Source of the DNA: an uncultured archaeon
GTDB taxonomy: Archaea; Asgardarchaeota; Thorarchaeia; Thorarchaeales; Thorarchaeaceae
Direction of reading: 5' to 3'
Length of the DNA: 28,732 nt
Assembly: GCA_964631415.1 (NCBI GenBank)
Contig: CAZVZC010000013.1
Location: 1 to 28,732 of the forward strand
In this document: one piece after another, positions 8,234 through 22,013 of the stretch
Layout: each line of letters starts with the position of its first letter
How positions within the stretch are numbered: position 1 is the first letter of the stretch
Position numbers and translations under genes: made by a program
The notes under the pieces: model-generated
Databases searched by the model: none
What the model was told of the DNA's origin: nothing
What the model saw: only the letters and a program-made list of their open reading frames with translations

Positions 8234-10810
8234 CTAGGGAACAAACGTCACAGTCCTCTCAATCATCGTGTTCGTCGTGTCTGCCGCGTGAAATGCTCCT
8301 GCCGTAGCGTAGAAATACATCAGGTTGTAGCCGTACTGCTGTGTGCCTTCGTCAAATGCGTACCACAAGTCGAAGAGGTCGTCCCAGTGGAGACTGAAGG
8401 GATTGCCGCTCTGTCCTGCAGGAATCACACCGTATGACATCTGTATGTTGCTCAGGTCTGCGACCATCCTCCATGAAGGACCGTGTGTCACTCTCCAGCC
8501 GCCTGCACTGTTCAGAGTGTTCTGTCCCCGATGAGGTCCTCCACCGATGTACGTCAAGTCCGCGATATGATCAATGTAGACCCTGTGGTGAACGCCATAG
8601 ATCCAATTCGCCGGGTCAGTGCCAAAGTCCTCAATCATTCCATTGAGAGCACGATGAAGGGCCCTAACAAGTATCTGTTCACGGGTTTCAACCGTCGGGC
8701 TTGTCGTATGATCGTCAAGGTAGTATGAGTAGTTCTCCCTGATGATCATCTCGACAATCGGTGTTCGAGACAGAGGAAGCGTTGTGTCAATTGACCTTAG
8801 CTCATCAAGGATCTCATAGTGTATTGCACTGAGGAGATACATCCAAAACGTTGGGGCGACAATATCGGTGTCCATGACGTAGTCCCATTCTTCGAGCCAA
8901 GTCACAGCCTGCTCAACACTGCTGTTGCCGTCTCCTGCACTGGCCCATGCAGCGGTGACGTAGGGGACGATTTGCTGAGCTCTGACTTCGAGTGAGTCTG
9001 CCTGATACTGCTTCATGTCATCGACAGTCACATTGTTGTTGGCTGCCAGGAGAGAGTCGATGCGGCGGCCTCTGTAGCCGTCATCAAAAGGTCCCAGCAT
9101 TTTGAATCCGTAGGAACTGAAGTCGATTGATTTCTGATTGGCGGACTGCAAGTAGCCCTGTGATGGGTTCACGGATCGAGGAATCAGGGCATAGGGGATG
9201 TTGCTCACCATGCCTATAGAGTCGTTCAAGGCGGTGACCGGGTACTCACCTGTGTATCCCGATCTGATAGGGAACCTGCCACACACGGTAATGGCTATGT
9301 TCCCTGCGTCATCAGCATAGATTATGTTCTGTGGCGGGCTGTCCCACCAGTACAGCGCATCATAGTATCCTTGGAGATCGTTGGCTCTGTTCAGTTTGCT
9401 GATGGCAAGCAACGAAGTGGACACATCACTTCCCGTCCAATTCATTGCGATGTTGGGCTCTGTGTTGGAGTCAAGGCCATATGTGTCCAAGACAGAGTCG
9501 ATGAGCGGCCCATGAACGGAAACCTTCACATCGAACGGGACATCTGGTCCGCCTTTCACGTGAATCGTCTCGTCCACCAATTGGAGGGCTCTGTACTGAC
9601 CATTATACATGTACTTGCTCGAGTTGGTGGGATCGAGCTGCTCTACAAACACATCAAGCACATCCGCGCCAACATTAGTGAACCCCCAAGCGACATGGGC
9701 TGTGTGTCCCAGAATGACTCCTGGCAATCCGGGCAAAGTCACTCCGGCAACGTCTATCTCTCCGGGCACGACAATATGAGCCTCGTACCATAGTGATGGG
9801 GCTTGTAGCCCCAGATGTGGATCATTGGCTAGCAAGGGTTCGCCAGTGGCCGACCTCAGTCCGCTGACCGCCCAGTTGTTACTGCCCAGCATCTCCTCTT
9901 CGAACGGTCTGATGGCATCTCCGAGTACTGCCATCAGAGCGTTAAGCTTCTCACTTGGTATGACCGCCGGGTCGACGATTACTTGGCTAACCAGGCCTTC
10001 CGGGTTCGCCGTCGCAGGGTGTCCTCCTGGCGCATTTGGATAAGTGGCTAGGCTCAAGTTTGTCTGCTCGGGCACTATCGGCACTTCATAGGGCATGACA
10101 TCCGGGAAGAGCTCACCATACATTGTGTCGTTGTCAATGGTTTCTCTCACCCACTGGCGATAGAAGTCCTCGAAACCGCCTGACAGGCCCCATGCCATCA
10201 TCTCTGACCATATGAAGATGTCCAACCGGGTCCAATGTTGGGGTGTGAACCCGAGGATCTTGAACTCAATAGGTGTCATCGCACTTGTCATGGAGTCGAT
10301 GAATGCGTTTACCCCTTGGACCTCCGCGTCAACCACGCTAAGGGAATATGCGATATCAGGGTCGGCTTGGTGTCCTACACACCAGTCGAGGGTATTCTGT
10401 GCGGACCTCGCTAGGCCGATAGTACGGTAGAACTTGTCGCTACTAACGCCGCGAGAACCGACGATTTCACTAATCCGCCCTGAGGCCAGGTAGTTCTGCA
10501 ACACCATCTGGAACAACCTGTCCCTAGCATGAAGGTACCCCAAGGCCATGTAAGCATCTTCGGCTGTGTCACCGTATATGTGAGGGATACCCCACTGGTC
10601 GACAATCACGTCGACCTGCGCTGTGAGACCCGGCAGTTTCACTGTCTGCGCGGCAGCGTTCTTAGCCCCATATCCCACATCAAAAATCCCGCCAATAGGC
10701 TGGATGATGCCCAGACCACCTGCCAGCGGTCCAATGGGCATGGTCAGAAGCACTATCATTACCGCAGGACCGACAAGCGACAGGCAAAAGCTGATGATTC
10801 TCTTCCTCAT
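8234..10810 (-). CDS. Penicillin acylase family protein (peptidase S45, Ntn hydrolase), N-terminally membrane-anchored
   Basis: DQWGIPHIY, GYLHARDRLFQM, autoproteolytic GSNNWAVSG (nucleophile Ser codon 9881-9883), ANDPHL, SANQ, GPSWRMVAD and GQSGNP. GGTGA RBS before ATG 10810. Confidence 0.95.
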   Translation of the reverse strand: MRKRIISFCLSLVGPAVMIVLLTMPIGPLAGGLGIIQPIGGIFDVGYGAKNAAAQTVKLPGLTAQVDVIVDQWGIPHIYGDTAEDAYMALGYLHARDRLFQMVLQNYLASGRISEIVGSRGVSSDKFYRTIGLARSAQNTLDWCVGHQADPDIAYSLSVVDAEVQGVNAFIDSMTSAMTPIEFKILGFTPQHWTRLDIFIWSEMMAWGLSGGFEDFYRQWVRETIDNDTMYGELFPDVMPYEVPIVPEQTNLSLATYPNAPGGHPATANPEGLVSQVIVDPAVIPSEKLNALMAVLGDAIRPFEEEMLGSNNWAVSGLRSATGEPLLANDPHLGLQAPSLWYEAHIVVPGEIDVAGVTLPGLPGVILGHTAHVAWGFTNVGADVLDVFVEQLDPTNSSKYMYNGQYRALQLVDETIHVKGGPDVPFDVKVSVHGPLIDSVLDTYGLDSNTEPNIAMNWTGSDVSTSLLAISKLNRANDLQGYYDALYWWDSPPQNIIYADDAGNIAITVCGRFPIRSGYTGEYPVTALNDSIGMVSNIPYALIPRSVNPSQGYLQSANQKSIDFSSYGFKMLGPFDDGYRGRRIDSLLAANNNVTVDDMKQYQADSLEVRAQQIVPYVTAAWASAGDGNSSVEQAVTWLEEWDYVMDTDIVAPTFWMYLLSAIHYEILDELRSIDTTLPLSRTPIVEMIIRENYSYYLDDHTTSPTVETREQILVRALHRALNGMIEDFGTDPANWIYGVHHRVYIDHIADLTYIGGGPHRGQNTLNSAGGWRVTHGPSWRMVADLSNIQMSYGVIPAGQSGNPFSLHWDDLFDLWYAFDEGTQQYGYNLMYFYATAGAFHAADTTNTMIERTVTFVP

Positions 10811-11010
10811 GCATCTCACCTAGAGCCCCGAAGTGTGGTGTAAGAGAATGTGGGTCGTAACTGATAAGTCTTGGTGAAGGCAAAAACCGAGGGTATGTCC
10901 TGTTCTATGCAGAGATGTGCACACCACCCTCTGCAATGGGCTAGCTGTGCATGTTGGTTGACAAGCTTTTTCAGTAAGATAGATGGCCGGTAACGAGGTC
11001 GTGAGTAACC

Positions 11011-12057
11011 ATGGTAAAGACCGACACATTCAGAGGCAGAGATTTCATAACACTACGTGAATACACAAAAGAGGAAGTCGAAACGATTCTGGAGGTCGCT
11101 CTAGACCTAAAGAGGAAGTTCGCAATCGGAGAGCCGCACAAGCTTCTGGACTCGAAGACGCTCTTCATGATATTCTACAACCAGAGCCTTCGGACACGCA
11201 ACTCATTTGAAGCAGGAATGACGCAGCTCGGAGGACATGCCCACTTCTTGGACCCTGACAAGATATACGCTCCAGCGCTGGAAGGTGATGAGAAGGCCTA
11301 CTCTACCGAGAGAGTGGCCGATGTCGCCAGAGTTCTTTCCAGAATGGGACACGGGATATCGATTCGCTGCTATGGTGACCCGGTAGGCTGGATCTATGGT
11401 CGGGCAAACGAGATAATCAGAAACTTCGCCCATTGGTCCAGCATTCCGGTCATCAACATGGAGGATGATAAATACCATCCGTGTCAGGCACTGGCTGACA
11501 TCATGACTGTGAAGGAGAAGTTCGGCACATTCAAAGGCGTCCGATTCGTGATGTCTTGGGCTTACTCCCCATCAGTCCACAAACCGCTGGCCGTACCGCA
11601 GAGTGCAATCATTGCAGCGACCAAGATGGGCATGGACACAGTGCTAGCTCATCCTAAAGGAATGGAACTCGATGACGACATCATCAAGCAATGCAAGGTG
11701 TATGCCCAGGAGAACAACAGCAGCTTCGAGATAATGAATGATATGGATGAGGCATTCAAAGGTGCTAATGTTGTATACCCGAAGTCTTGGACATGTAAGC
11801 AATTCATACCACCTTTCAACAGCAAGCCAGAGCTCGACAAGGCAAAGGTCGTTTTTGACAAGAACAAGAGCTGGATTTGCGATGACGCGAAGATGAAGAT
11901 TGCCGGGCCCAAGGCTCTCTACATGCATTGCCTCCCATGTGACCGCGGTTTCGAGGTTGCGAACTCAGTGATAGATGGACCTCAATCCATCGTCTGGGAT
12001 CAGGCCGAGAACAGGCTGCATGCGCAGAAGGCTGTAATGGCACTGACCATGCGCTAG
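11011..12057 (+). CDS. Knotted-type carbamoyltransferase (AOTCase/SOTCase/YgeW-like member of the OTCase superfamily)
   Basis: Carbamoyl-phosphate motif SLRT, HPCQ, WAYSPSVHKPLAVPQS, YPKSW, HCLP, QAENRLH and an extended 80s loop. Confidence 0.92.
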   Translation: MVKTDTFRGRDFITLREYTKEEVETILEVALDLKRKFAIGEPHKLLDSKTLFMIFYNQSLRTRNSFEAGMTQLGGHAHFLDPDKIYAPALEGDEKAYSTERVADVARVLSRMGHGISIRCYGDPVGWIYGRANEIIRNFAHWSSIPVINMEDDKYHPCQALADIMTVKEKFGTFKGVRFVMSWAYSPSVHKPLAVPQSAIIAATKMGMDTVLAHPKGMELDDDIIKQCKVYAQENNSSFEIMNDMDEAFKGANVVYPKSWTCKQFIPPFNSKPELDKAKVVFDKNKSWICDDAKMKIAGPKALYMHCLPCDRGFEVANSVIDGPQSIVWDQAENRLHAQKAVMALTMR

Positions 12058-12075
12058 TAGCGATAGCTTACGCAC

Positions 12076-12125
12076 ATCGGGGTCACGCACGGCGGCCGAA
12101 ATCGGCCAATGTCGTGGCCTCCGAT
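12076..12125 (+). terminator. Long GC-rich hairpin between the two carbamoyltransferase genes
   Basis: ATCGGGGTCACG pairs with CGTGGCCTCCGAT (one bulge, one GU). Inner stem GGCCG/CGGCC. Confidence 0.55.
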
Positions 12126-12129
12126 ACAC

Positions 12130-12138
12130 CTTAAAACG
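12130..12138 (+). promoter_or_regulatory. TATA-like box for the second carbamoyltransferase
   Basis: CTTAAAACG lies ~25 nt before GTG 12161 and ~35 nt before ATG 12170. The same 9-mer is at 26980-26988 upstream of tdh. Confidence 0.5.
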
Positions 12139-12169
12139 CCGCGACCTTCTTCCTTTTGTAGTGATTCCT

Positions 12170-13222
12170 ATGAAGAGTCTTTTTGGACGAGACCTGATAA
12201 CGACCCAAGAATGGAGTGTTGAAGAGCTCGAGCGAACCTTGGCCCTGTCTTTTGAGTTCAAGGCTCACCGCTTCGACCACCCATTGAGGAACTGTCTTGA
12301 CCGCAAGACGTTCATGATGTTCTTCTTCAATCCTAGCGTGAGAACCAGACAAAGCTTCGAGTGTGCGGCCACGGAACTGGGTGGGCACGCTCAGTTTCTC
12401 GAACCCAAAACAATGAGACTCAAGACGGAGACAAGTGCAGGCGAAACAGTCCAGGATGCCGCGAATGTGATGAGTCGCTATGCCTGTGGGATTGGCATCA
12501 GGACTCTTGAAACCGCAGTCGACCGCTACGGCGAAGGCGACGACCTTCTCCGGGAGTACGCGAAATGGGCGAGTGTGCCTGTCATCAGCATGGCACATGA
12601 CAAGTTTCACCCTTGCCAAGGATTGGCTGATGTAATGGGAATGAGAATGCACGGCGGCAAGAACCTGAAGCGTAAGAAGCTCCTGCAAGTATGGGGAAAG
12701 GGAGCTCTGGTAAGATCTTGGTGTTCAGTTCAAGAGAGTATTCTAGTCAACACCCGCCTCGGACTTGACGTTGCTCTGGCCTATCCTGAAGGCTATGACT
12801 TAGATCCGCAAGTCATCAAGTGGTGTGAAGACAATGCGGCCGCATCGGGTGGCAGATTCGAGATAGTGCATGACCTGGAGGAAGGATACAAGGGGGCGGA
12901 TTTCGTCTATAGTCGCAATTGGCAGAGCCCTGCGTTCTATGCAGACATGAAGAAGTCGGGTGCTGACGCCGCCAAGAAGAAAGAGATCGAGATGGCAGCA
13001 AAGCATGATGACTGGATCTGCACCAGCGACTGGATGTCAAAGACAAGGAATGCCTTCTTCATGCACTGTGGACCTGTGGATCGTGGTGCAGAGGTGACTG
13101 ACGAAGTCTGTGACGGGCTTCGGTCAATCGTATACGACATAGCCGAGAACAGGCTTCATGTTCAGAAGGCGATAATGGCTCTGACAATGGCTGGCCCTGA
13201 AGCTAAGTCAGATCGCAAGTAG
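12170..13222 (+). CDS. Divergent carbamoyltransferase paralogue (OTCase superfamily), substrate unknown
   Basis: SVRT, HPCQ and AENRLH are retained. Substrate-side motifs are altered: WGKGALVRSWCSVQE, YSRNW, HCGP. Confidence 0.9.
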   Translation: MKSLFGRDLITTQEWSVEELERTLALSFEFKAHRFDHPLRNCLDRKTFMMFFFNPSVRTRQSFECAATELGGHAQFLEPKTMRLKTETSAGETVQDAANVMSRYACGIGIRTLETAVDRYGEGDDLLREYAKWASVPVISMAHDKFHPCQGLADVMGMRMHGGKNLKRKKLLQVWGKGALVRSWCSVQESILVNTRLGLDVALAYPEGYDLDPQVIKWCEDNAAASGGRFEIVHDLEEGYKGADFVYSRNWQSPAFYADMKKSGADAAKKKEIEMAAKHDDWICTSDWMSKTRNAFFMHCGPVDRGAEVTDEVCDGLRSIVYDIAENRLHVQKAIMALTMAGPEAKSDRK

Positions 13223-13270
13223 GATTGGAATCAAGTAGAGTTCCGCCTGCTGCAAAACTGGTATCAGAAT

Positions 13271-13315
13271 GTCCAGTCCGGCTGTCGCCCTCACAATGTG
13301 GCAGGCAGGCTGGAC
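13271..13315. terminator. Hairpin between convergent genes
   Basis: GTCCAGTC/GGCTGGAC, CTGTC/GGCAG and CAC/GTG nested pairings. Confidence 0.45.
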
Positions 13316-13336
13316 CAACTGATCTGTTAGGGTCGG

Positions 13337-13618
13337 CTACCATGCACCCTCGGTTGTATCGAATGCCTTCAGAATGAAGAAGATTATAATCGCTACAAGA
13401 ATGATGACCGTGAAGAAGCCGAGGACAAATGCAGGACCGGACAGTTCGTTCCAGAACACCAAGGGTCCAAAGATGTATCTGAAGTTGACTACTCCTGTCA
13501 CATCTGCCATAATCACCAGCGCAAGGGGCATCATGACGAACACTGTCAATGCCACTGCAATGTAGGCGGCGCGCCGAACCCACACGTGTTTGAAACGAGG
13601 CTTTGGTTCCTCCGTCAT
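13337..13618 (-). CDS. Small 2-TM membrane protein, paralogous to the C-terminal domain of the upstream gene
   Basis: 82-aa ungapped alignment to the 13667 gene C-terminus, with shared IFGPxxFWNELSGP and ILKAFxxxEGxW. Confidence 0.88.
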   Translation of the reverse strand: MTEEPKPRFKHVWVRRAAYIAVALTVFVMMPLALVIMADVTGVVNFRYIFGPLVFWNELSGPAFVLGFFTVIILVAIIIFFILKAFDTTEGAW

Positions 13619-13666
13619 GGCACTCTACTTCATGTCAGTCGGTCACCAAGACAGATGCATGGCTGC

Positions 13667-14545
13667 CTACCAAGTGCCTTCTGCTGCGCTAAAAGCTTTG
13701 AGGATGAAGTACATCATAATCGCAGAAAGAATAACAATCGCTCCAAAACCCATAATGAAGCCCGGTCCTGACAGTTCGTTCCAGAAGATGAACGGACCAA
13801 AGATCTCGCTGAAGGCGCCGACCCCGGTCAGGTCGGAAACCAGCATCAGGAAATACGGTGTCGTCACGAAGACAAGCGCAGCAACAGAGAGGTAGCCTGC
13901 TCTCTTGAGCCAGACTGCCCTCATATCGGACTCTGGCATTGGTGCGACCGCTGCCGTTGCGGTGGCTGGCTCTGCTTGCTTGGCTGCGACACCCGTGCCG
14001 CTTCTCAGATATCGATGACGCAACGAGTCATACCTCAGTTTCCAGTACTCCACGAAGCCCTGCTTGCTGATGTCGTCGGTTCTCCTTAGCAGGCGCCACA
14101 TGAGTGCTGTTGCCGCGATGAACGTGAAAACACCAGCAGCTACGGGGGCGGCATATTCGTAGAACAAGAGGATGTTGTATACAGCCGCGCCCACTCTGAA
14201 TCCTACAAGCACTGCGAGCCACCCTGTCCGATTTCCGAATATCCGCGACCTAGTGTGAAGGTAGTAAGACCCAGCGATCATGGCAAACAATGAGAATGAA
14301 ACTATGTCAACAAGGAACCAGATGTACCACCACTCAGTACTGAGCGCAAACCGCACAAGAGGGTTGAACTCATAGGCCCCTCCATAGCTGTTCCATAGCA
14401 GGACGGTATAGATTGCATCAATCAGACCAATGGGAGTGAGAGATATGACAAGGTATCGAACCCATCTCTCTTCCCACCATAATGACAACATCTGACGAGG
14501 AGTCATTGTGGTCAGGTCTTTCCTTCGCTTAGGCACGCGCATCAT
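13667..14545 (-). CDS. Membrane protein: N-terminal 4-TM domain (DUF5658-like D...T...ExNP motif) fused to a C-terminal 2-TM domain
   Basis: IDAIYT...YEFNPLVRF motif, a basic/Ala-rich linker and the duplicated C-terminal domain. Start uncertain (14608 to 14542). CTTATA TATA-like at ~14593-14598 favours a downstream ATG. Confidence 0.85.
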   Translation of the reverse strand: MMRVPKRRKDLTTMTPRQMLSLWWEERWVRYLVISLTPIGLIDAIYTVLLWNSYGGAYEFNPLVRFALSTEWWYIWFLVDIVSFSLFAMIAGSYYLHTRSRIFGNRTGWLAVLVGFRVGAAVYNILLFYEYAAPVAAGVFTFIAATALMWRLLRRTDDISKQGFVEYWKLRYDSLRHRYLRSGTGVAAKQAEPATATAAVAPMPESDMRAVWLKRAGYLSVAALVFVTTPYFLMLVSDLTGVGAFSEIFGPFIFWNELSGPGFIMGFGAIVILSAIMMYFILKAFSAAEGTW

Positions 14546-14792: not shown

Positions 14793-16658
14793 CTAGGTCA
14801 CTGCAAAGGTCTTGTAGTAGTTGTAGAAGTACATGTCGTGCATTGCATTGTACTGGTAGCCTATCATGTACTTTGACTCTACATGGAAGCTCTGAGCCTG
14901 GTATGCCCAGATGTAGGCAACTTGGTCTACTATGGCCTGCTGGATCTTACCGTAGAGAATCAGTCGCTCTGTCGAGTTCTGACTCTGTGATGCGGCTGTA
15001 ATCCAACCGTCGACAAGGGTCGCGTTCCAGCCAATCGATACGTCCAGACCGATCCTTCTTGGGTAAGTACCAGTGCTTCTGACGAATGGTCCTACGTAGT
15101 TGTCCGGGTCAGCGTAGTCAGGTGCCCATCCTAGGAAGAAGATAGGCAGCTGTTTGTTCTGTACCTGGAACAGGTAGCTTGCCCACTCAAGGGCGATGAC
15201 ATCAACCGTCAGCGGCGAAGATGGCTGGGTGGCCGCTGGGTCAGCAAGGATGGCTGCGATGCCGTCCTTCATCAGCAGGCAGGCTCTCTCACGGTTGGTG
15301 TTGCCTGAGTTGTAGTAGATCTCAAGCTTGTAGGACATGTTGGCTAGCACGGCGGGGAGGCCAGCAGCCATTGCGGCGTTCCACTTCTGAACAGCTTGGT
15401 CAAGGTCGTACTGGTACATGAACAGGCTGTCGTTGTGTCCGAACATGGTGATTGGGATTGGTCCCTGAGCCTGTTCACCAAAGCCGTTCAGGACGTTCGT
15501 AATGAACGATGCGTAGTTGAAGGCGTAAGAGAAGGATTCTCTCAGTGTCTTGATGGTGAACGGGCTCTGGACTATCGAACCAGACTTGTTCAGATAGGGG
15601 TTCATGTTGAAGCCGATGAACATCACGTCGTACGTGAGGTACTGTGCCCACAGCTTCAGACCGGAGATCGATGACTTGAGTGTACCGTCGCCGTTCGAAC
15701 CGTTGACGCGGTTCCAGATCTGGTCAGAGTGGCTCACTGGCCAGTACGTCTGATCGGTCGTTCCTGCCTTAATGTTCAGAATCCTGCTGTTGACATCCTC
15801 GTTGGTCTTGATTGTTATCGAGGTGCAGTTACCTGCATACGGGTGAGTTGTCTTGGCAGCATCTGCTCTCCAGTAGTTGGGATTCAGGTCAAGCTGGATG
15901 TGCGAGTCAGGCACCCAAGCGGTCACCATGTATGGCCCAGTGCCACAGGTAGTTGTGTCCACTATCGTGTTGTGTGTGCCAATTGTGACTCCGCCGTTTG
16001 CCTCAACCCATGATGGGCTCATCATCGCACCGACCTCGTAGGTGATTGCAGCGAGGAACGGAGAGTACGCGTACGCCAGTCTCAGCCTCACGACGTAGGT
16101 GCTCATCACGAGGATTCCACCTGTGCCAGCGTCATTTGCGGCCTTCCAAGCGGTGAAGTTGCCCAAGTGCTGGGAACTGCCCTCACCGAATGAAAAGACA
16201 GCGTCCTCAACGGCCTGTCCGCCGAGGATTGGCTCAGCGAACATCCATCCGGGACCAAAGCTGTCGAATATCTTCATGACTCTCTCGAGGTTGTACTTCA
16301 CGCATGAAGCGTTGAACGGGGTCCCGTCATGGAACGTGATGCCCTCACGGAGGGTGAAGGTGTAGTTCAGCCCGTCTGCTGAAACCACTACGCCCGAAGC
16401 CAGCAACGGCACCGTCGGGGCCGTGTCTGTCGAGTCAAAGTCATACGTATACAACGTCTCATACACATTATACGAGATCCACGAGCCGAAAGACTCGTAG
16501 TCCGTATGCGGATCTAGATACTCCGGATTGCCAATCGTTTCTAGTATCATGGCGTTTGGTCTCGGAGGTGGAGCCGGGGGCTGTAGTAAGAAATATGCTC
16601 CAGCCGCACCCACAATGACGACCACCACTACGATGGCAAGGAGTTGGTTCTTCTGCAT
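14793..16658 (-). CDS. Peptide/nickel ABC transporter substrate-binding protein (family 5, DppA/OppA-like), N-terminal membrane anchor
   Basis: LDPH, NVYETL, YTFTLREGITFHDGTPFNA, GTGPY and GWAPDYADP. GGAGG RBS. Many N-X-S/T sequons. Confidence 0.96.
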   Translation of the reverse strand: MQKNQLLAIVVVVVIVGAAGAYFLLQPPAPPPRPNAMILETIGNPEYLDPHTDYESFGSWISYNVYETLYTYDFDSTDTAPTVPLLASGVVVSADGLNYTFTLREGITFHDGTPFNASCVKYNLERVMKIFDSFGPGWMFAEPILGGQAVEDAVFSFGEGSSQHLGNFTAWKAANDAGTGGILVMSTYVVRLRLAYAYSPFLAAITYEVGAMMSPSWVEANGGVTIGTHNTIVDTTTCGTGPYMVTAWVPDSHIQLDLNPNYWRADAAKTTHPYAGNCTSITIKTNEDVNSRILNIKAGTTDQTYWPVSHSDQIWNRVNGSNGDGTLKSSISGLKLWAQYLTYDVMFIGFNMNPYLNKSGSIVQSPFTIKTLRESFSYAFNYASFITNVLNGFGEQAQGPIPITMFGHNDSLFMYQYDLDQAVQKWNAAMAAGLPAVLANMSYKLEIYYNSGNTNRERACLLMKDGIAAILADPAATQPSSPLTVDVIALEWASYLFQVQNKQLPIFFLGWAPDYADPDNYVGPFVRSTGTYPRRIGLDVSIGWNATLVDGWITAASQSQNSTERLILYGKIQQAIVDQVAYIWAYQAQSFHVESKYMIGYQYNAMHDMYFYNYYKTFAVT

Positions 16659-17025: not shown

Positions 17026-18075
17026 ATGAAGCTCAGAGACTTCATACTTAGAAGAATGCTACTGGCTATTCCAGTAGTCTTTGGTGTAGTCACAATCACT
17101 TGGTTTCTTTCCTACGTTGTTGGCGATCCTATCGCCATGTGGGTGACTGAGCGTACTCCTGACGCCGCCATTCCGGGCATTAGGCTTCAACATGGTCTTG
17201 ACCAACCCCTTGTGGTGCAGTACTTTCTGTACATATCGCAGCTTTTGAGGGGCGATTGGGGACTCAGCTATACGACCGGAGGAGACAAGCCGGTCTTGGA
17301 AGTGATCGCAGAACGATTCCCTGCAACTGGAGAGCTGGCTCTTGTGGCGATGGTCTTTGCCGTGGTTCTCGGGATTCCCCTTGGTATACTCTCAGCGACA
17401 AAGAAGGACAAGCCAATTGACCATTTCACTAGGGTTTTCTCACTGGCTGGCGTATCCATGCCTATTTTCTGGTTTGGCCTGATGCTCAAGTACGTCCTGT
17501 TCTACGAGATGGGCCTTTTGCCATCCGGTGAGAGATTCGATAATGACCTGTGGAAGCTTGTTCTTGGCAACGGTGTCGGCTACACGGACACGACTTCAAT
17601 CACAAGATTCATTCTCGTCGATTCATTGCTTTATGGCAGTCCGGCATTGTTCTATGACGCAGTCCGACATCTTGTCATGCCTGGGTTCTGCCTAGGGTAT
17701 CTGACATTGGCTGTCATTACAAGGATGATGCGCTCCAGCATGTTGGAGGTCTTGAAGGAAGACTACATCACTCTGGCAAAGTCCAAGGGGCTGACTGATC
17801 GTATCGTCATATACAGACATGCCCTACGGAATGCTCTCATTCCAACTGTCACGGTAATTGGTCTTGCCTTTGGTGGTCTCTTGTCGGGGGCGGTGCTGAC
17901 CGAAACCATATTCCAGTGGCCCGGAGTGGGACGGTGGGCGACCCGGGCTATCCTGCAGTCCGACATCGCTGCCATCAACGGGTTCACTCTTCTTGTTGCG
18001 TTGATATTCGTGACTGCGAACCTGATAGTAGATCTCTCATATGGAGCTCTTGACCCGCGCATTAGGTTCGGATAG
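17026..18075 (+). CDS. dppB: Peptide ABC transporter permease, DppB/OppB-like
   Basis: GDP, GLDQPLVVQY, GDWGLS, EAA loop DYITLAKSKGL, HALRNA, ETIFQWPGVG and LDPRI. Confidence 0.96.
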   Translation: MKLRDFILRRMLLAIPVVFGVVTITWFLSYVVGDPIAMWVTERTPDAAIPGIRLQHGLDQPLVVQYFLYISQLLRGDWGLSYTTGGDKPVLEVIAERFPATGELALVAMVFAVVLGIPLGILSATKKDKPIDHFTRVFSLAGVSMPIFWFGLMLKYVLFYEMGLLPSGERFDNDLWKLVLGNGVGYTDTTSITRFILVDSLLYGSPALFYDAVRHLVMPGFCLGYLTLAVITRMMRSSMLEVLKEDYITLAKSKGLTDRIVIYRHALRNALIPTVTVIGLAFGGLLSGAVLTETIFQWPGVGRWATRAILQSDIAAINGFTLLVALIFVTANLIVDLSYGALDPRIRFG

Positions 18076-18087
18076 GAGGACGTTTCG

Positions 18088-19815
18088 ATGGATTCTATAG
18101 AACGCGGCCATTCAGGGGCGCCGGATGACGAGATTGTTGAAGGCTTTCTAGGAAGAGGACTGTCGTATCTGGAAATCATCGTGTCCCTCTTCACGATGAG
18201 CATTGGAGCAGTGTATCTTTTTGGATTGATTGTGGGCTGGATTGCACATGCCATCAGAATCACGTTTGAGATGCCGAGCCTATTCATAGGATGGTCTCTG
18301 CAGGCACTACTCCTCGTGGTGCTGGGATACATGAATCTGAAGATAGGCAGGGCTTTCATGAAGAGTGAGCCTTGGGCATTTTCTTCATCGCTTTACATGA
18401 ACCTCCTCTGTGGCCTGGTCCTCTTCACCATTGGTCCTCTCGGGTTCGTCCCCGCGATGCTCTCGCTAGTACTCATCCTCATGTTGTTCGCACCCAGTGT
18501 GAGGAAGGTGTGGTACGAGGGGTTTCGAGAGGACATGGGACCGAGGACAAAGGAGCTGAAATACAGCCTTCACCTTGTTCGAAAGAGCCCTCTGGTTGTA
18601 GTTGGCATTGTAGTCATCGTAAGTCTTGTCGCTATCGCGTTTCTGGCGCCTTGGATTACGCCGTATGGCTCAGAGGAGCGTGTCTGGAATGATACAAAGG
18701 CTCCTCCGGGCTCTGTGGCGAGCGAGCCAAAGTTTGAGCAGAGAGGCCTTCGCTACTGGAATCATACGGACGTAAAGCTTCTGCCCAACTACACAAGACA
18801 AGAGTTGTCTGTTCTGCCTGAGGAAGTTGCTACGAGCATTGCGCCGAACGTGCATTTCTCGATTACTGTCAAGAACACTACCACTGACGCCCAGAATGTG
18901 ACCATCTACACTGCAGTGTACAATCTCACTTTGGCTGAGTTCGACTCCATGAATGAAACGTTTCGGCAGGCGTACTTGTTGGGGTCGAAGATCGACTATG
19001 ACTGGATGCGCAGCACTGTGAGTCTCGGCAACACGGCTAGGGAATATGTCTGGGTGTATTGGTTCAATGCGACCCAGAAGACAGAGTCCTGGGATGTGGA
19101 CATTTTCATCAGCTTCAGGTACAACTACTATTACCCTGTCCACATATGGGGCGCAGATGAAACTGGCGGAGATGTATACAGCCGCATCATATGGGCCTCT
19201 CAAGTGGACCTCAAGATATCACTCAGCATAGTCTTGGTCGCGATAGCTTCAGGCTCACTCATTGGCGCGGCATCTGGATACTTCGGTGGGAAGCTCGATG
19301 AGATAGTCATGAGAGTGACTGACATATTCTTCGCGTTCCCAGGTCTTATCCTTGCGATGGCTATCGTGATGGCGCTCGGCGCGAGAAGCCTTGACAACAT
19401 CGCCATCGCACTCATGATAACTTGGTGGCCGGTTTACGCGCGGCTTGTCCGCGGGCAAGTCCTATCGGAGCGTGAGAAGTTGTATGTTGAGGCCGCACGC
19501 TCCATTGGAGCTAGCGACACCCGGATCCTACTGGCTCACATCTTACCCAATACAATACAACCGGTGATTGTGCAGGGCACACTGGACACAGGTGGTGTGC
19601 TTCTGACCGCCGCTGGCCTCGCGTTCATTGGGTTCGGTCCTCCCACAGGTAGTGCAGAGTGGGGCTTGATGATTTCAACCGGGCAGCAGTTCCTGTTCAG
19701 CCACCCGTGGATGTCCATGTACCCGGGTCTGGCAATACTGATCACAGCTCTTGCCTTCAACCTAGTGGGTGATGGCATACGCGACATACTCGATCCCAAG
19801 CTGAGAAGGAGATAG
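18088..19815 (+). CDS. dppC: Peptide ABC transporter permease, DppC/OppC-like, with extra N-terminal TM domain and a large extracellular insertion
   Basis: HIWGADETGGDVYSRI, EAA loop YVEAARSIGA, HILPN, EWGLMI and GDGIRDILDP. At 575 aa it is about twice the usual length. Confidence 0.93.
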   Translation: MDSIERGHSGAPDDEIVEGFLGRGLSYLEIIVSLFTMSIGAVYLFGLIVGWIAHAIRITFEMPSLFIGWSLQALLLVVLGYMNLKIGRAFMKSEPWAFSSSLYMNLLCGLVLFTIGPLGFVPAMLSLVLILMLFAPSVRKVWYEGFREDMGPRTKELKYSLHLVRKSPLVVVGIVVIVSLVAIAFLAPWITPYGSEERVWNDTKAPPGSVASEPKFEQRGLRYWNHTDVKLLPNYTRQELSVLPEEVATSIAPNVHFSITVKNTTTDAQNVTIYTAVYNLTLAEFDSMNETFRQAYLLGSKIDYDWMRSTVSLGNTAREYVWVYWFNATQKTESWDVDIFISFRYNYYYPVHIWGADETGGDVYSRIIWASQVDLKISLSIVLVAIASGSLIGAASGYFGGKLDEIVMRVTDIFFAFPGLILAMAIVMALGARSLDNIAIALMITWWPVYARLVRGQVLSEREKLYVEAARSIGASDTRILLAHILPNTIQPVIVQGTLDTGGVLLTAAGLAFIGFGPPTGSAEWGLMISTGQQFLFSHPWMSMYPGLAILITALAFNLVGDGIRDILDPKLRRR

Positions 19816-19822
19816 GGCGTCG

Positions 19823-20977
19823 ATGTCTCAGGAATATGTGCTTGTCATAAAGGATCTTACAACCAACTTCTACACCTACGAGGGTGTGGTAAGAGCGCTT
19901 GATCGCGTCGAGATTAGTCTGAAACGTGGCGACACCATGGGGATAGTGGGGGAAACGGGATGCGGAAAGTCCGTGACCGCCAAGTGCGTGCTGCGCCTTG
20001 TCGAGCCTCCTGGCAGGATTGACGGAGGACAGATTCTGTTCTACGATCGAGACCCAAAGACTGGCGAGTATCAGGAAATCGATATCGTGAAACTTGACCC
20101 GCAGGAGATGCTGAGCATACGTGGAAACAGAATAGCCATTGTCTTCCAAGACCCGGCGACCTACCCGAATCCGGTCTTTCGAGTTGGAGCACAGATTGCC
20201 GAGGTTGTCATGCTGCATCAGGACCTATCCAGAGAGGCGCTTGAGATCAGGATTCGAGAGCTTGAACAGTCTCTCAAGGGCAAAGTGAATCCTGGGCGGG
20301 CTTCGAAGATAGGCGATCAGATAGCGGCCTACACCGCTCAGCTTGACAACCCTCCAAAATCGGACAAGAAATACTTCCGCAAGGCTGCGTGGAACAGGGC
20401 AGTTGAGATGCTGGCGATGGTGCGAATGCCGTCTCCGGAGCAAATCGCAAACCAGTATCCACATGAGCTGTCCGGTGGAATGCGGCAACGTGCACTAATC
20501 GCGATGGCTCTCGCCTGCAACCCATCGATTTTGATATGTGACGAGGCAACGACTGCACTGGATGTAACTGTCCAAGCCCAAGTATTGAATCTACTCAACG
20601 AGCTCAAGAAGAAGATTGGGGCCTCAATACTAATCATCACTCATGATTTGGGCGTTGTAGCGGAAACATGCAATTCCGTGACCGTCATGTATGCAGGCAC
20701 GACAGTCGAGTCCACCTCAACAAAGGAGCTCTTCAACAACCCAGTTCATCCGTACACAATAGGTCTGCTCACAGCAATTCCAAAGCTGCATGAGAACAAA
20801 GAGCGGCTTGATCAGATACTGGGAACCGTACCTAACCTCATCAACCCGCCATCCGGTTGCAGGTTTCACCCGCGATGCGCGTTTGCCACTGATGTATGCA
20901 CGCAGGAACGACCCTCTCTTGTAGAGGTCAGACCTTACCATTGGGTCGCTTGCCACCACCCACAGGGAGACGTCTGA
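19823..20977 (+). CDS. dppD: Peptide ABC transporter ATPase, DppD/OppD-like
   Basis: Walker A GETGCGKS, LSGGMRQR, Walker B ILICDE, H-loop ITHD, HPYT and C-terminal GCRFHPRC..C..C. Confidence 0.96.
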   Translation: MSQEYVLVIKDLTTNFYTYEGVVRALDRVEISLKRGDTMGIVGETGCGKSVTAKCVLRLVEPPGRIDGGQILFYDRDPKTGEYQEIDIVKLDPQEMLSIRGNRIAIVFQDPATYPNPVFRVGAQIAEVVMLHQDLSREALEIRIRELEQSLKGKVNPGRASKIGDQIAAYTAQLDNPPKSDKKYFRKAAWNRAVEMLAMVRMPSPEQIANQYPHELSGGMRQRALIAMALACNPSILICDEATTALDVTVQAQVLNLLNELKKKIGASILIITHDLGVVAETCNSVTVMYAGTTVESTSTKELFNNPVHPYTIGLLTAIPKLHENKERLDQILGTVPNLINPPSGCRFHPRCAFATDVCTQERPSLVEVRPYHWVACHHPQGDV

Positions 20978-20984
20978 GGAGTGA

Positions 20985-22013
20985 ATGAGAATGGCTGATG
21001 TTCTGGTAGGTGTTGAGCACCTCAAGAAATACTTCCCTCTGATGGGCGGTGTGTTCAGGAAGGTCATTGGTAAAGTGCATGCAGTCGATGATGTCACATT
21101 CGACATCTACCGAGGGGAAACCATTGGTGTGGTAGGGGAGTCCGGGTGTGGAAAGACAACCCTTGGAAGGACGATACTCAGGTTGCTGACACCTACGAGT
21201 GGTAAGATACTCTTCGAAGGGGAGGACATAACCAACCTACACGGTGTCGGACTACGTCGCATCAGACACGAGATGCAAATAGTGTTTCAAGACCCAATGG
21301 CTTCACTTGATCCGAGAGTCACCATAAAGAACACTGTTGGTGAGCCTTTGGTCATCAACGGGATAGCCCGCGGACCGAAGATGCGTGCTATGGTGCTGGA
21401 GCTTCTGCAGAAGGTCGGATTGACTGAGGATCACCTGAACAGATTTCCTCACGAGTTCAGCGGTGGGCAGAGACAACGTGTCTGTATAGCGCGTGCATTG
21501 GCATTGAACCCAAAGTTCGTTGTGATGGACGAACCGACTTCGAGCACTGATGTTTCAGTGCAAGCGCAGACGCTTAATTTGATGAAGGACCTTCAGGACG
21601 AGTTCAAGCTCACCTACATGTTCATCAGCCACAACCTGAGCGTTGTGAAACACATGAGTGACCGACTGGCCGTGATGTATCTGGGCAAGATTGTGGAACT
21701 AACCCCATATGACATCTTCAAGAAGGCTCTGCATCCCTACACCTTTGCTCTCGTGTCAGCTGTTCCTGTGCCAGACCCAAGGTATGCAGGGAGGGCTCAG
21801 ATTCTCAGTGGCGAAGTGCCGAGCCCAATCAACCCTCCAACAGGTTGCAGGTTCCACCCAAGGTGCATCTTTGCTCAGGAGATCTGCAGTCAAGAAGAGC
21901 CTCTTCTCAGAGATATCGGCAACGGTCATATGGTTGCGTGTCATTTTGCGGGGGAGCTCGACTTCGGCATAAGTTCACAAATGGAGTACGCCGAGGCCGC
22001 TGCCCCCAGTTGA
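20985..22013 (+). CDS. dppF: Peptide ABC transporter ATPase, DppF/OppF-like
   Basis: GESGCGKT, FSGGQRQR, VVMDEPT, ISHN, HPYT and GCRFHPRC..C..C. Confidence 0.96.
   Translation: MRMADVLVGVEHLKKYFPLMGGVFRKVIGKVHAVDDVTFDIYRGETIGVVGESGCGKTTLGRTILRLLTPTSGKILFEGEDITNLHGVGLRRIRHEMQIVFQDPMASLDPRVTIKNTVGEPLVINGIARGPKMRAMVLELLQKVGLTEDHLNRFPHEFSGGQRQRVCIARALALNPKFVVMDEPTSSTDVSVQAQTLNLMKDLQDEFKLTYMFISHNLSVVKHMSDRLAVMYLGKIVELTPYDIFKKALHPYTFALVSAVPVPDPRYAGRAQILSGEVPSPINPPTGCRFHPRCIFAQEICSQEEPLLRDIGNGHMVACHFAGELDFGISSQMEYAEAAAPS

Follow-up and report, generated by a model that had tools for sequence, protein, structure and literature searches.

The stretch of DNA analyzed here (hereafter the window) covers 28,732 nucleotides, positions 1 to 28,732 of contig CAZVZC010000013.1 in assembly GCA_964631415.1 of an uncultured Thorarchaeaceae archaeon, and carries two adjacent, co-oriented carbamoyltransferase genes at 11,011–13,222, which we call TC1 and TC2. 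We propose, with a probability of about one half, that the two genes encode separate enzymes of catabolism, carbamoyltransferases that phosphorolyze both ureido groups of 2,3-diureidopropionate in turn. The proposal is based on phylogeny, on the conservation of the substrate pockets and on the gene clusters of bacterial homologs, from which we infer the substrates and the order of the steps. The reaction would run from a ureido compound and phosphate to an amine and carbamoyl phosphate. TC1 would be the functional counterpart of YgeW and remove one ureido group of the (R)-2,3-diureidopropionate formed in reductive urate/purine degradation. TC2 would then act on the mono-ureido product and take off the ureido group still left, the step that is hydrolytic and performed by YgeY (or UacY) in Escherichia coli and Clostridioides. 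Both carbamoyl phosphates would be passed to carbamate kinase to make ATP, giving two ATP per purine rather than one. Each of the two enzymes is presumably a homotrimer.

TC1 (11,011–12,057, forward strand, 348 amino acids) is a compact YgeW-like carbamoyltransferase, and TC2 (12,170–13,222, forward strand, 350 amino acids) is a second paralog, 40% identical to TC1 over 344 residues. The open reading frame (ORF) of TC2 opens with a GTG at 12,161; the start is most likely the ATG at 12,170, because the homologs open with M-K/N-S-L-Y-G. Both translations contain the Pfam domains OTCace_N and OTCace above the gathering score (137.7 and 125.6 bits in TC1, 121.9 and 116.2 bits in TC2) and, together with the SxRT, HPxQ and HxLP motifs, these domains place both in the transcarbamylase superfamily. 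The motifs read SLRT (residues 59–62), HPCQ (156–159), WAYSPSVHKPLAVPQ (183–197), YPKSW (256–260) and HCLP (306–309) in TC1, and SVRT (59–62), HPCQ (150–153), WGKGALVRSWCSVQE (178–192), YSRNW (250–254) and HCGP (302–305) in TC2. The HxLP position is thus occupied by HCGP in TC2 and by HPMP in bacterial TC2 members, and its His and Pro are invariant in the family alignment. An earlier note on this DNA, made from the letters alone, had described tandem and divergent carbamoyltransferases that lack the STRT and SMG motifs of ornithine carbamoyltransferase (OTCase); both ORFs are found where it placed them, all of its listed motifs are present, and STRT and SMG occur in neither translation. The best sequence match of both proteins in the PDB is the canonical OTCase of Pyrococcus furiosus (1PVV/1A1S; 227 bits for TC1 and 200 bits for TC2). 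The three proteins share the fold and the carbamoyl-phosphate motifs SxRT and HPxQ, but TC1 and TC2 differ from the canonical enzyme in insertions in the 80s, 120s, proline-loop and 240s regions, as well as in the missing STRT and SMG.

By curated NCBIfam cut-offs, neither protein is an OTCase, an N-acetylornithine carbamoyltransferase (AOTCase) or a YgeW. The best match of both is the AOTCase model NF003384, with 287.7 bits for TC1 and 254 bits for TC2 against a cut-off of 288. The OTCase models give 256.9 and 206.9 bits (TIGR00658, cut-off 280.85) and 256.2 and 213.9 bits (NF001986, cut-off 306), the YgeW models 155.5 and 135.9 bits (TIGR03316, cut-off 500) and 162.1 and 145.9 bits (NF005538, cut-off 453), and both proteins are also under the cut-off of the NCBIfam model for putrescine carbamoyltransferase. 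Public records name members of the TC1 and TC2 families OTCase or AOTCase. The TC1 score of 287.7 is a near-miss of the AOTCase cut-off, and this may explain the mixed AOTCase and OTCase names of close TC1 relatives; both names are probably wrong for the TC1 family. The specificity residues of AOTCase are Glu92, Asn185 and Lys302 (PMC4581275). When aligned with the Xanthomonas campestris AOTCase, Lys302 corresponds to Glu315 in TC1 and Glu311 in TC2, Asn185 is not conserved and corresponds to Pro192 in TC1, and the alignment at Glu92 is ambiguous. The source genome (2.16 Mb in 81 contigs, 85% complete) carries a canonical OTCase (439 bits) and an aspartate carbamoyltransferase (ATCase, 375 bits) on other contigs.

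The phylogenetic placement of the pair was investigated with a tree of 124 sequences, comprising 106 representatives of an exhaustive TC1 search together with members of the families, YgeW of E. coli, and the OTCase and ATCase of the source genome. TC1 and TC2 are both found inside a 77-sequence clade of knotted enzymes, supported at 99 by the Shimodaira–Hasegawa-like approximate likelihood ratio test (SH-aLRT), which splits into sister clades of 30 (SH-aLRT 99) and 47 sequences (97). The 30-sequence clade is identified as that of AOTCase and N-succinylornithine carbamoyltransferase (SOTCase), because its members match X. campestris AOTCase with about 316 bits and one of the two members tested also matches SOTCase. 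E. coli YgeW falls in the 47-sequence clade, as do the families of TC1 (SH-aLRT 96–99) and TC2 (99). The source genome's canonical OTCase branches elsewhere in the tree, apart from TC1 and TC2. Phylogeny had been suggested as a check on whether the two are ordinary enzymes, and it sets both outside the characterized OTCase and AOTCase/SOTCase clades and inside the clade that contains YgeW (SH-aLRT 97). Thorarchaeota TC1 and TC2 are 65–73% identical to homologs from Chloroflexota, Heimdall- and Lokiarchaeota, Elusimicrobia, Cloacimonadota and other groups. In the tree of the TC1 family, the sequences from Asgard archaea group in a single clade (SH-aLRT 100) that lies among bacterial ones, a topology that fits one interdomain transfer, in either direction.

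By sequence alignment, TC1 keeps most of the proposed acceptor residues of YgeW. E. coli YgeW has WAYSPSYGKPLSVPQ and YPKSW at the positions matching the TC1 loop and its YPKSW. The residues proposed to bind the second substrate of YgeW are Q98, D124, Q160, S200, K203, K270, D334 and E344 (PMC4581275). Five of these eight are retained in TC1, where S188, K191, K258, D311 and E315 correspond to S200, K203, K270, D334 and E344, and the position of Q160 is occupied by Glu. The same five residues and the whole proline-rich loop are invariant across the Asgard and bacterial members of the TC1 family. TC2, aligned in the same way, retains only D124, D334 and E344 and has Arg at the position of K270, and the TC2 family has invariant residues of its own (R185-S186-W187, S189-E192, R252 and N253-W254). 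As judged from these alignments, the acceptor pocket of TC2 is different from that of TC1.

TC1 and TC2 thus share their clade with YgeW (YTCase; PDB 3Q98), and TC1 also its proline-rich loop, its YPKSW and five of its eight acceptor residues, but the two are only about 33% identical to YgeW and about 45 residues shorter. In the YgeW structure, both termini carry additional helices, two helices are inserted in the 240s loop, and the 80s loop is short (PMC4581275). The extra helices and the 240s insert are gapped in both TC1 and TC2, and the 80s loop, short in YgeW, is long in TC1: it is strongly conserved, exceeds that of P. furiosus OTCase by nine residues and is close to AOTCase in length. 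Comparison with the real YgeW sequence therefore bears out the mixture that had been read from TC1, an AOTCase-like long 80s loop combined with YgeW-type acceptor loops and YPKSW. The pair resembles AOTCase (X. campestris ArgF', PDB 3KZC) and SOTCase (Bacteroides fragilis) in belonging to a sister clade and in length; the 80s and 120s loops are likewise extended, the alignment has almost no gaps, and the structural model of TC1 has its best match there. The pair differs from them in the loss of the specificity residues, in its sub-cut-off scores, in lacking an arginine-biosynthesis context, and in the catabolic context with carbamate kinase in bacteria.

Among transcarbamylases, the knotted group of AOTCase, SOTCase and YTCase has a proline-rich loop, and its 120s loop is extended (PMC4581275). 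In TC1, WAYSPSVHKPLAVPQ contains three prolines, and the 120s region has an insertion of 10 residues compared with that of P. furiosus OTCase. The 120s insertion is also present in TC2, in which the WGKGALVRSWCSVQE loop is of the same length as that of TC1 and contains no proline. The earlier description of both proteins as knotted is therefore matched by the sequence features of TC1 and only partly by those of TC2. AlphaFold2 models have a mean predicted local distance difference test score of 78.9 for TC1 and 66.3 for TC2, the latter with a poor N-terminal domain. The TC1 model, searched with Foldseek, gives a template modeling (TM) score of 0.82 to AOTCase and 0.77 to OTCase, which does not decide on a 3-1 trefoil knot in the C-terminal domain.

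We surveyed 80 loci around TC1 homologs by tblastn, 22 of them Asgard and 58 bacterial, and the bacterial counts below refer to the 46 loci that extend 2.5 kb or more beyond TC1 on its downstream side. Of these, 33 have TC2, which is directly downstream of TC1 in 23, and 31 have carbamate kinase, accompanied by TC2 in 28. A ThrC-like pyridoxal phosphate (PLP) enzyme is found in 18. The pairing of TC1 and TC2 is far beyond chance, since the two are neighbors in 33 of 46 bacterial loci and both occur in about 44 of the 81 Thorarchaeia genomes surveyed. In locus L009, for example, the pair is surrounded by genes for SsnA (566 bits, cut-off 444), D-hydantoinase (498, cut-off 393), a PreA-type reductase (465, cut-off 335) and carbamate kinase (393, cut-off 266), together with a xanthine-dehydrogenase (Xdh) molybdenum subunit below the cut-offs, a GltD/YgfK-like subunit and a xanthine permease. 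In the reductive urate pathway, SsnA and HyuA open the rings to give (R)-2,3-diureidopropionate, YgeW phosphorolyzes one of its ureido groups and the carbamate kinase YqeA uses the carbamoyl phosphate to make ATP, the other group is hydrolyzed by YgeY, and the lyase YgeX turns diaminopropionate into pyruvate (PMC12507026; bioRxiv 10.1101/2025.04.24.650524). In bacteria both families adjoin carbamate kinase, as YgeW does, and genes for SsnA, hydantoinase (HyuA), a PreA-like reductase and Xdh are often nearby. By analogy of gene content, the bacterial clusters represent this reductive urate (2,8-dioxopurine) pathway in a variant form, mostly without YgeY. We suggest a catabolic role for the pair because in bacteria it sits with carbamate kinase in such purine/urate-type clusters, and these neighborhoods are also the best support for the ureido catabolism that had been offered as one possibility for the pair. 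The Thorarchaeota copies, by extension from the bacterial ones, would do the same job. In the literature we found no paper describing two carbamoyltransferases in the reductive urate pathway.

A YgeY homolog is found in 6 of the 80 loci; among those counted, 3 of the 33 loci with TC1 and TC2 have it and 2 of the 13 with TC1 only; one TC1-only locus has the order TC1, carbamate kinase, YgeY. The idea that YgeY is an alternative to TC2 is weakly supported by this distribution. The ThrC-like PLP enzyme (PRK08197, about 321–323 bits, cut-off 303) follows the core of TC1, TC2 and carbamate kinase, e.g., at 13,044–14,282 of locus L009, and lies upstream of TC1 in a Heimdallarchaeon (L012, 8,575–9,822). 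Since no close YgeX was found, this enzyme is a candidate that may perform the diaminopropionate-removing step of the variant. Its ortholog in the source genome is on contig C9, 57% identical and among housekeeping genes, and the lead was dropped for this genome.

Several observations weigh against the successive removal of both ureido groups of 2,3-diureidopropionate by TC1 and TC2. The grouping of TC1 with the YgeW subclade has an SH-aLRT of only 89. TC2 and YgeY are not cleanly complementary, as three loci have both and most TC1-only loci have neither. The two 2025 papers disagree on whether YgeW removes the 2- or the 3-ureido group (PMC12507026; bioRxiv 10.1101/2025.04.24.650524), so that the division of labor between TC1 and TC2 cannot be assigned. 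Furthermore, the Thorarchaeota gene context alone gives no pointer to purines. Genes for carbamate kinase, SsnA, hydantoinase and Xdh are missing within 10 kb, both in the window and in all 22 Asgard loci, and TC1 is instead tied in Thorarchaeota to a putatively exported acylase and an Opp-type transporter. An SsnA-like gene is present in 65 of the 81 Thorarchaeia genomes, with scores of 355–397 against the SsnA cut-off of 444, and neither carbamate kinase nor hydantoinase is found above threshold in the source assembly (85% complete). The system as proposed would differ from that of YgeW in having two enzymes instead of one, in mostly lacking YgeY and, in the archaeon studied here, in the absence of clustering with the pathway genes.

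Other parts of the pathway are present, in scattered form, across the class. The class survey covered 81 Thorarchaeia genomes, 24 of them high-quality, and the TC1 and TC2 tallies in it were counted by hand. TC1 is present in about 52 genomes, a TC2-type gene in about 61 and both in about 44; about 13 genomes have only TC2, about 8 have only TC1, and genomes with neither also exist. Carbamate kinase is above its cut-off in 64 of the 81 genomes and hydantoinase in 43. The absence of carbamate kinase from the source assembly is probably an assembly gap, because the gene is present in those 64 genomes, including two of the same genus. For carbamate kinase, the same figures qualify the earlier remark that no carbamate kinase, deiminase or arg gene is adjacent to the pair, which holds for the whole window in a domain survey. 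Looked through for pathway partners, the window gave only the acylase, rubrerythrin, a flavodiiron protein, a DUF5658 protein and the Opp genes. Searching the source genome by tblastn with the bacterial and E. coli cluster proteins, we found an SsnA-like gene on contig C53; on C78, a partial Xdh-family molybdenum subunit with a protein in which Xdh-FAD and GltD-like parts are fused; and on C31, genes resembling PreA and a deaminase. None of these is clustered with the others, and carbamate kinase, YgeX and a close HyuA were not found in this search.

The same chemistry could be applied to another substrate in Thorarchaeota, such as N-carbamoyl or ureido amino acids, citrulline-type residues in small peptides, or β-ureidopropionate from pyrimidines. 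Ureido compounds would be freed outside the cell by the putatively exported acylase and imported by the Opp-type transporter. The acylase gene (8,234–10,819, reverse strand) encodes a protein of the penicillin-amidase family of N-terminal nucleophile hydrolases (Pfam PF01804, E = 1e-184) with a hydrophobic N-terminus. It is divergent from TC1, from which it is separated by a common intergenic region of 191 nucleotides (10,820–11,010), and in 15 of the 22 loci from Asgard archaea it occupies the position immediately upstream of TC1, a conserved neighbor and as such a candidate partner only. Downstream of TC2, the Pfam domains of an Opp/Dpp-type ATP-binding cassette (ABC) transporter are found, the substrate-binding protein SBP_bac_5 at 14,793–16,658 on the reverse strand and two permeases and two ATPases at 17,026–22,013 on the forward strand. 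DUF5658, SBP_bac_5 and Opp genes recur near TC2 in Thor- and Lokiarchaeota, and the order rubrerythrin, flavodiiron protein, TC genes, DUF5658, SBP5 and Opp is common to loci L011, L013, L023, L026 and L028. A link between the transporter and the TC enzymes is putative. The absence of purine-pathway genes within 10 kb in all Asgard loci fits a substrate other than a purine product, and genes of the PreA-like, dihydropyrimidinase and CN_hydrolase kinds, which would suit pyrimidine ureides, are present in the class. However, Asgard and bacterial proteins are 65–73% identical with invariant acceptor-pocket residues, which argues for unchanged specificity, and synteny with the acylase and the transporter is no functional evidence. 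We therefore regard a different substrate in Thorarchaeota as a possibility worth keeping in view, though an unlikely one.

Another question is where these archaea obtain their carbamoyl phosphate. The large subunit of carbamoyl phosphate synthetase (CPSase; TIGR01369, E ≤ 1e-30) was found in none of the 81 Thorarchaeia genomes and in none of the 24 high-quality ones, and was found in 14 of 14 control genomes. OTCase and ATCase are nonetheless retained in Thorarchaeia, and the source genome has both (439 and 375 bits), each of which needs carbamoyl phosphate. It is conceivable that the main role of TC1 and TC2 is biosynthetic rather than the formation of ATP, and that they phosphorolyze scavenged ureido compounds to supply these two enzymes in place of CPSase. 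Carbamate kinase can itself make carbamoyl phosphate in Thermococcales, and with its presence in 64 of the 81 genomes it could do so here as well. The existence of class genomes without TC1 or TC2 and the link of the bacterial pair to carbamate kinase in catabolic clusters also speak against such a supply, and we consider it improbable. A broader form of the idea, to which we give slightly less credence still, would make TC1 and TC2 the route to carbamoyl phosphate in CPSase-less Thorarchaeota: ureido compounds would be scavenged through the acylase and the Opp-type transporter and would feed pyrimidine, arginine and ATP, an interdomain-transferred catabolic module having been turned to core anabolism in an Asgard lineage.

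TC1 and TC2 might also form an obligate heterotrimer with mixed active sites at the subunit interfaces, as the earlier note had offered as an alternative. In transcarbamylases, the 80s loop of one subunit takes part in the active site of its neighbor (PMC4581275), and the two genes are adjacent and co-oriented here. As to the co-occurrence that had been proposed as a check, both genes are indeed found together in about 44 of the 81 class genomes and in 33 of 46 bacterial loci, but each family is also often found without the other, in the roughly 13 TC2-only and 8 TC1-only genomes of the class. A solo TC2 is present in a 5.18-Mb bacterial genome, and TC1 is followed by carbamate kinase without TC2 in loci L049, L074 and L075. 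In Asgard archaea TC2 lies within 10 kb of TC1 in 8 of 18 loci, and the genes are often 3–17 kb apart or on opposite strands. All characterized members of the family other than ATCase and OTCase are homotrimers (PMC4581275). Because each gene is so often alone, an obligate heterotrimer is very unlikely.

Finally, anabolic OTCase or AOTCase isoenzymes for arginine synthesis, the identity stated in public annotations and favored by the AOTCase model as the best match (287.7 and 254 bits, cut-off 288), are hardly credible, and canonical arginine enzymes are rejected as the identity of the pair, in view of scores under every curated cut-off, the missing STRT and SMG motifs, the loss of AOTCase Asn185 and the Glu in place of Lys302 in both proteins, a clade separate from those of AOTCase/SOTCase and OTCase, the separate canonical OTCase in the genome, and the lack of neighboring arg genes, both here and in those loci that were studied closely.

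The spacer between the two genes (12,058–12,169, forward strand, 112 nucleotides) contains the hairpin GGCCG-AAAU-CGGCC at 12,094–12,107, a TTAAAA element and a T-rich stretch ahead of TC2. Its fold energy is −37.7 kcal/mol (z = −2.07), with 5 of 200 shuffled sequences folding equally well, so that it is mildly structured. The gap between TC1 and TC2 in relatives ranges from 13 nucleotides to several kb. The hairpin noticed earlier is thus present, and at this z value the argument drawn from it and from the TATA-like element for independent control of the two genes is weak.

Other relatives and possible substitutes of these enzymes were seen in the surveyed genomes. In Thorarchaeota GCA_021498125, a CN_hydrolase gene (L011, 9,017–9,883) lies divergently upstream of TC2 in place of the acylase and TC1 of the window, in a locus that is otherwise syntenic; its best match is N-carbamoylputrescine amidase, below the cut-off. 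The CN_hydrolase family includes carbamoyl-amidases, and to judge from the synteny, the arrangement may be a swap of a hydrolase for a transferase. Additional TC1-like paralogs are found in some Thorarchaeia genomes (G023, G011, G039, G044 and G049; G070 and G071), with 58–59% and 45–47% identity, and in G071 one of them adjoins a carbamate kinase gene. The source genome also encodes a very divergent fifth transcarbamylase-like ORF of 347 amino acids (L005, 928–1,971, equal to 16,586–17,629 of C31), which adjoins radical-SAM and ABC-transporter genes, can be aligned with the family and is probably a non-catalytic relative, because SxRT, HPxQ and HxLP are absent from its translation. On the 4.4-kb contig C78 (L097, 947–3,313), after the partial gene for the molybdenum subunit, a fusion gene encodes 788 amino acids in which a GltD/YgfK-like NAD(P)H-FeS module (Fer4_20 and Pyr_redox_2) splits an Xdh-type flavoprotein subunit into its FAD_binding_5 and CO_deh_flav_C halves.

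The claim of an undescribed specificity has to be divided. 2,3-Diureidopropionate was published as the YgeW substrate in 2025 and TC1 keeps most of the YgeW pocket residues, so the specificity proposed for TC1 would be a known one; what is undescribed is the second enzyme and the two-enzyme arrangement. Two large and highly conserved families are probably misnamed OTCase or AOTCase, which would lead to false arginine-pathway calls in Asgard archaea and many bacterial genomes. If our proposal is correct, the anaerobic urate pathway described in 2025 has a widespread variant that saves both ureido groups and yields two ATP per purine, ranging over Chloroflexota, Eisenbacteria, Caldisericota, Acidobacteriota, Myxococcota and Asgard archaea. 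A natural pair of enzymes with two different pockets would also help to settle the disagreement over the 2- and 3-ureido groups. For the biology of Asgard archaea, the pair raises, with CPSase missing, the question of the source of carbamoyl phosphate in these organisms, and it points to the interdomain transfer of an energy-yielding module.

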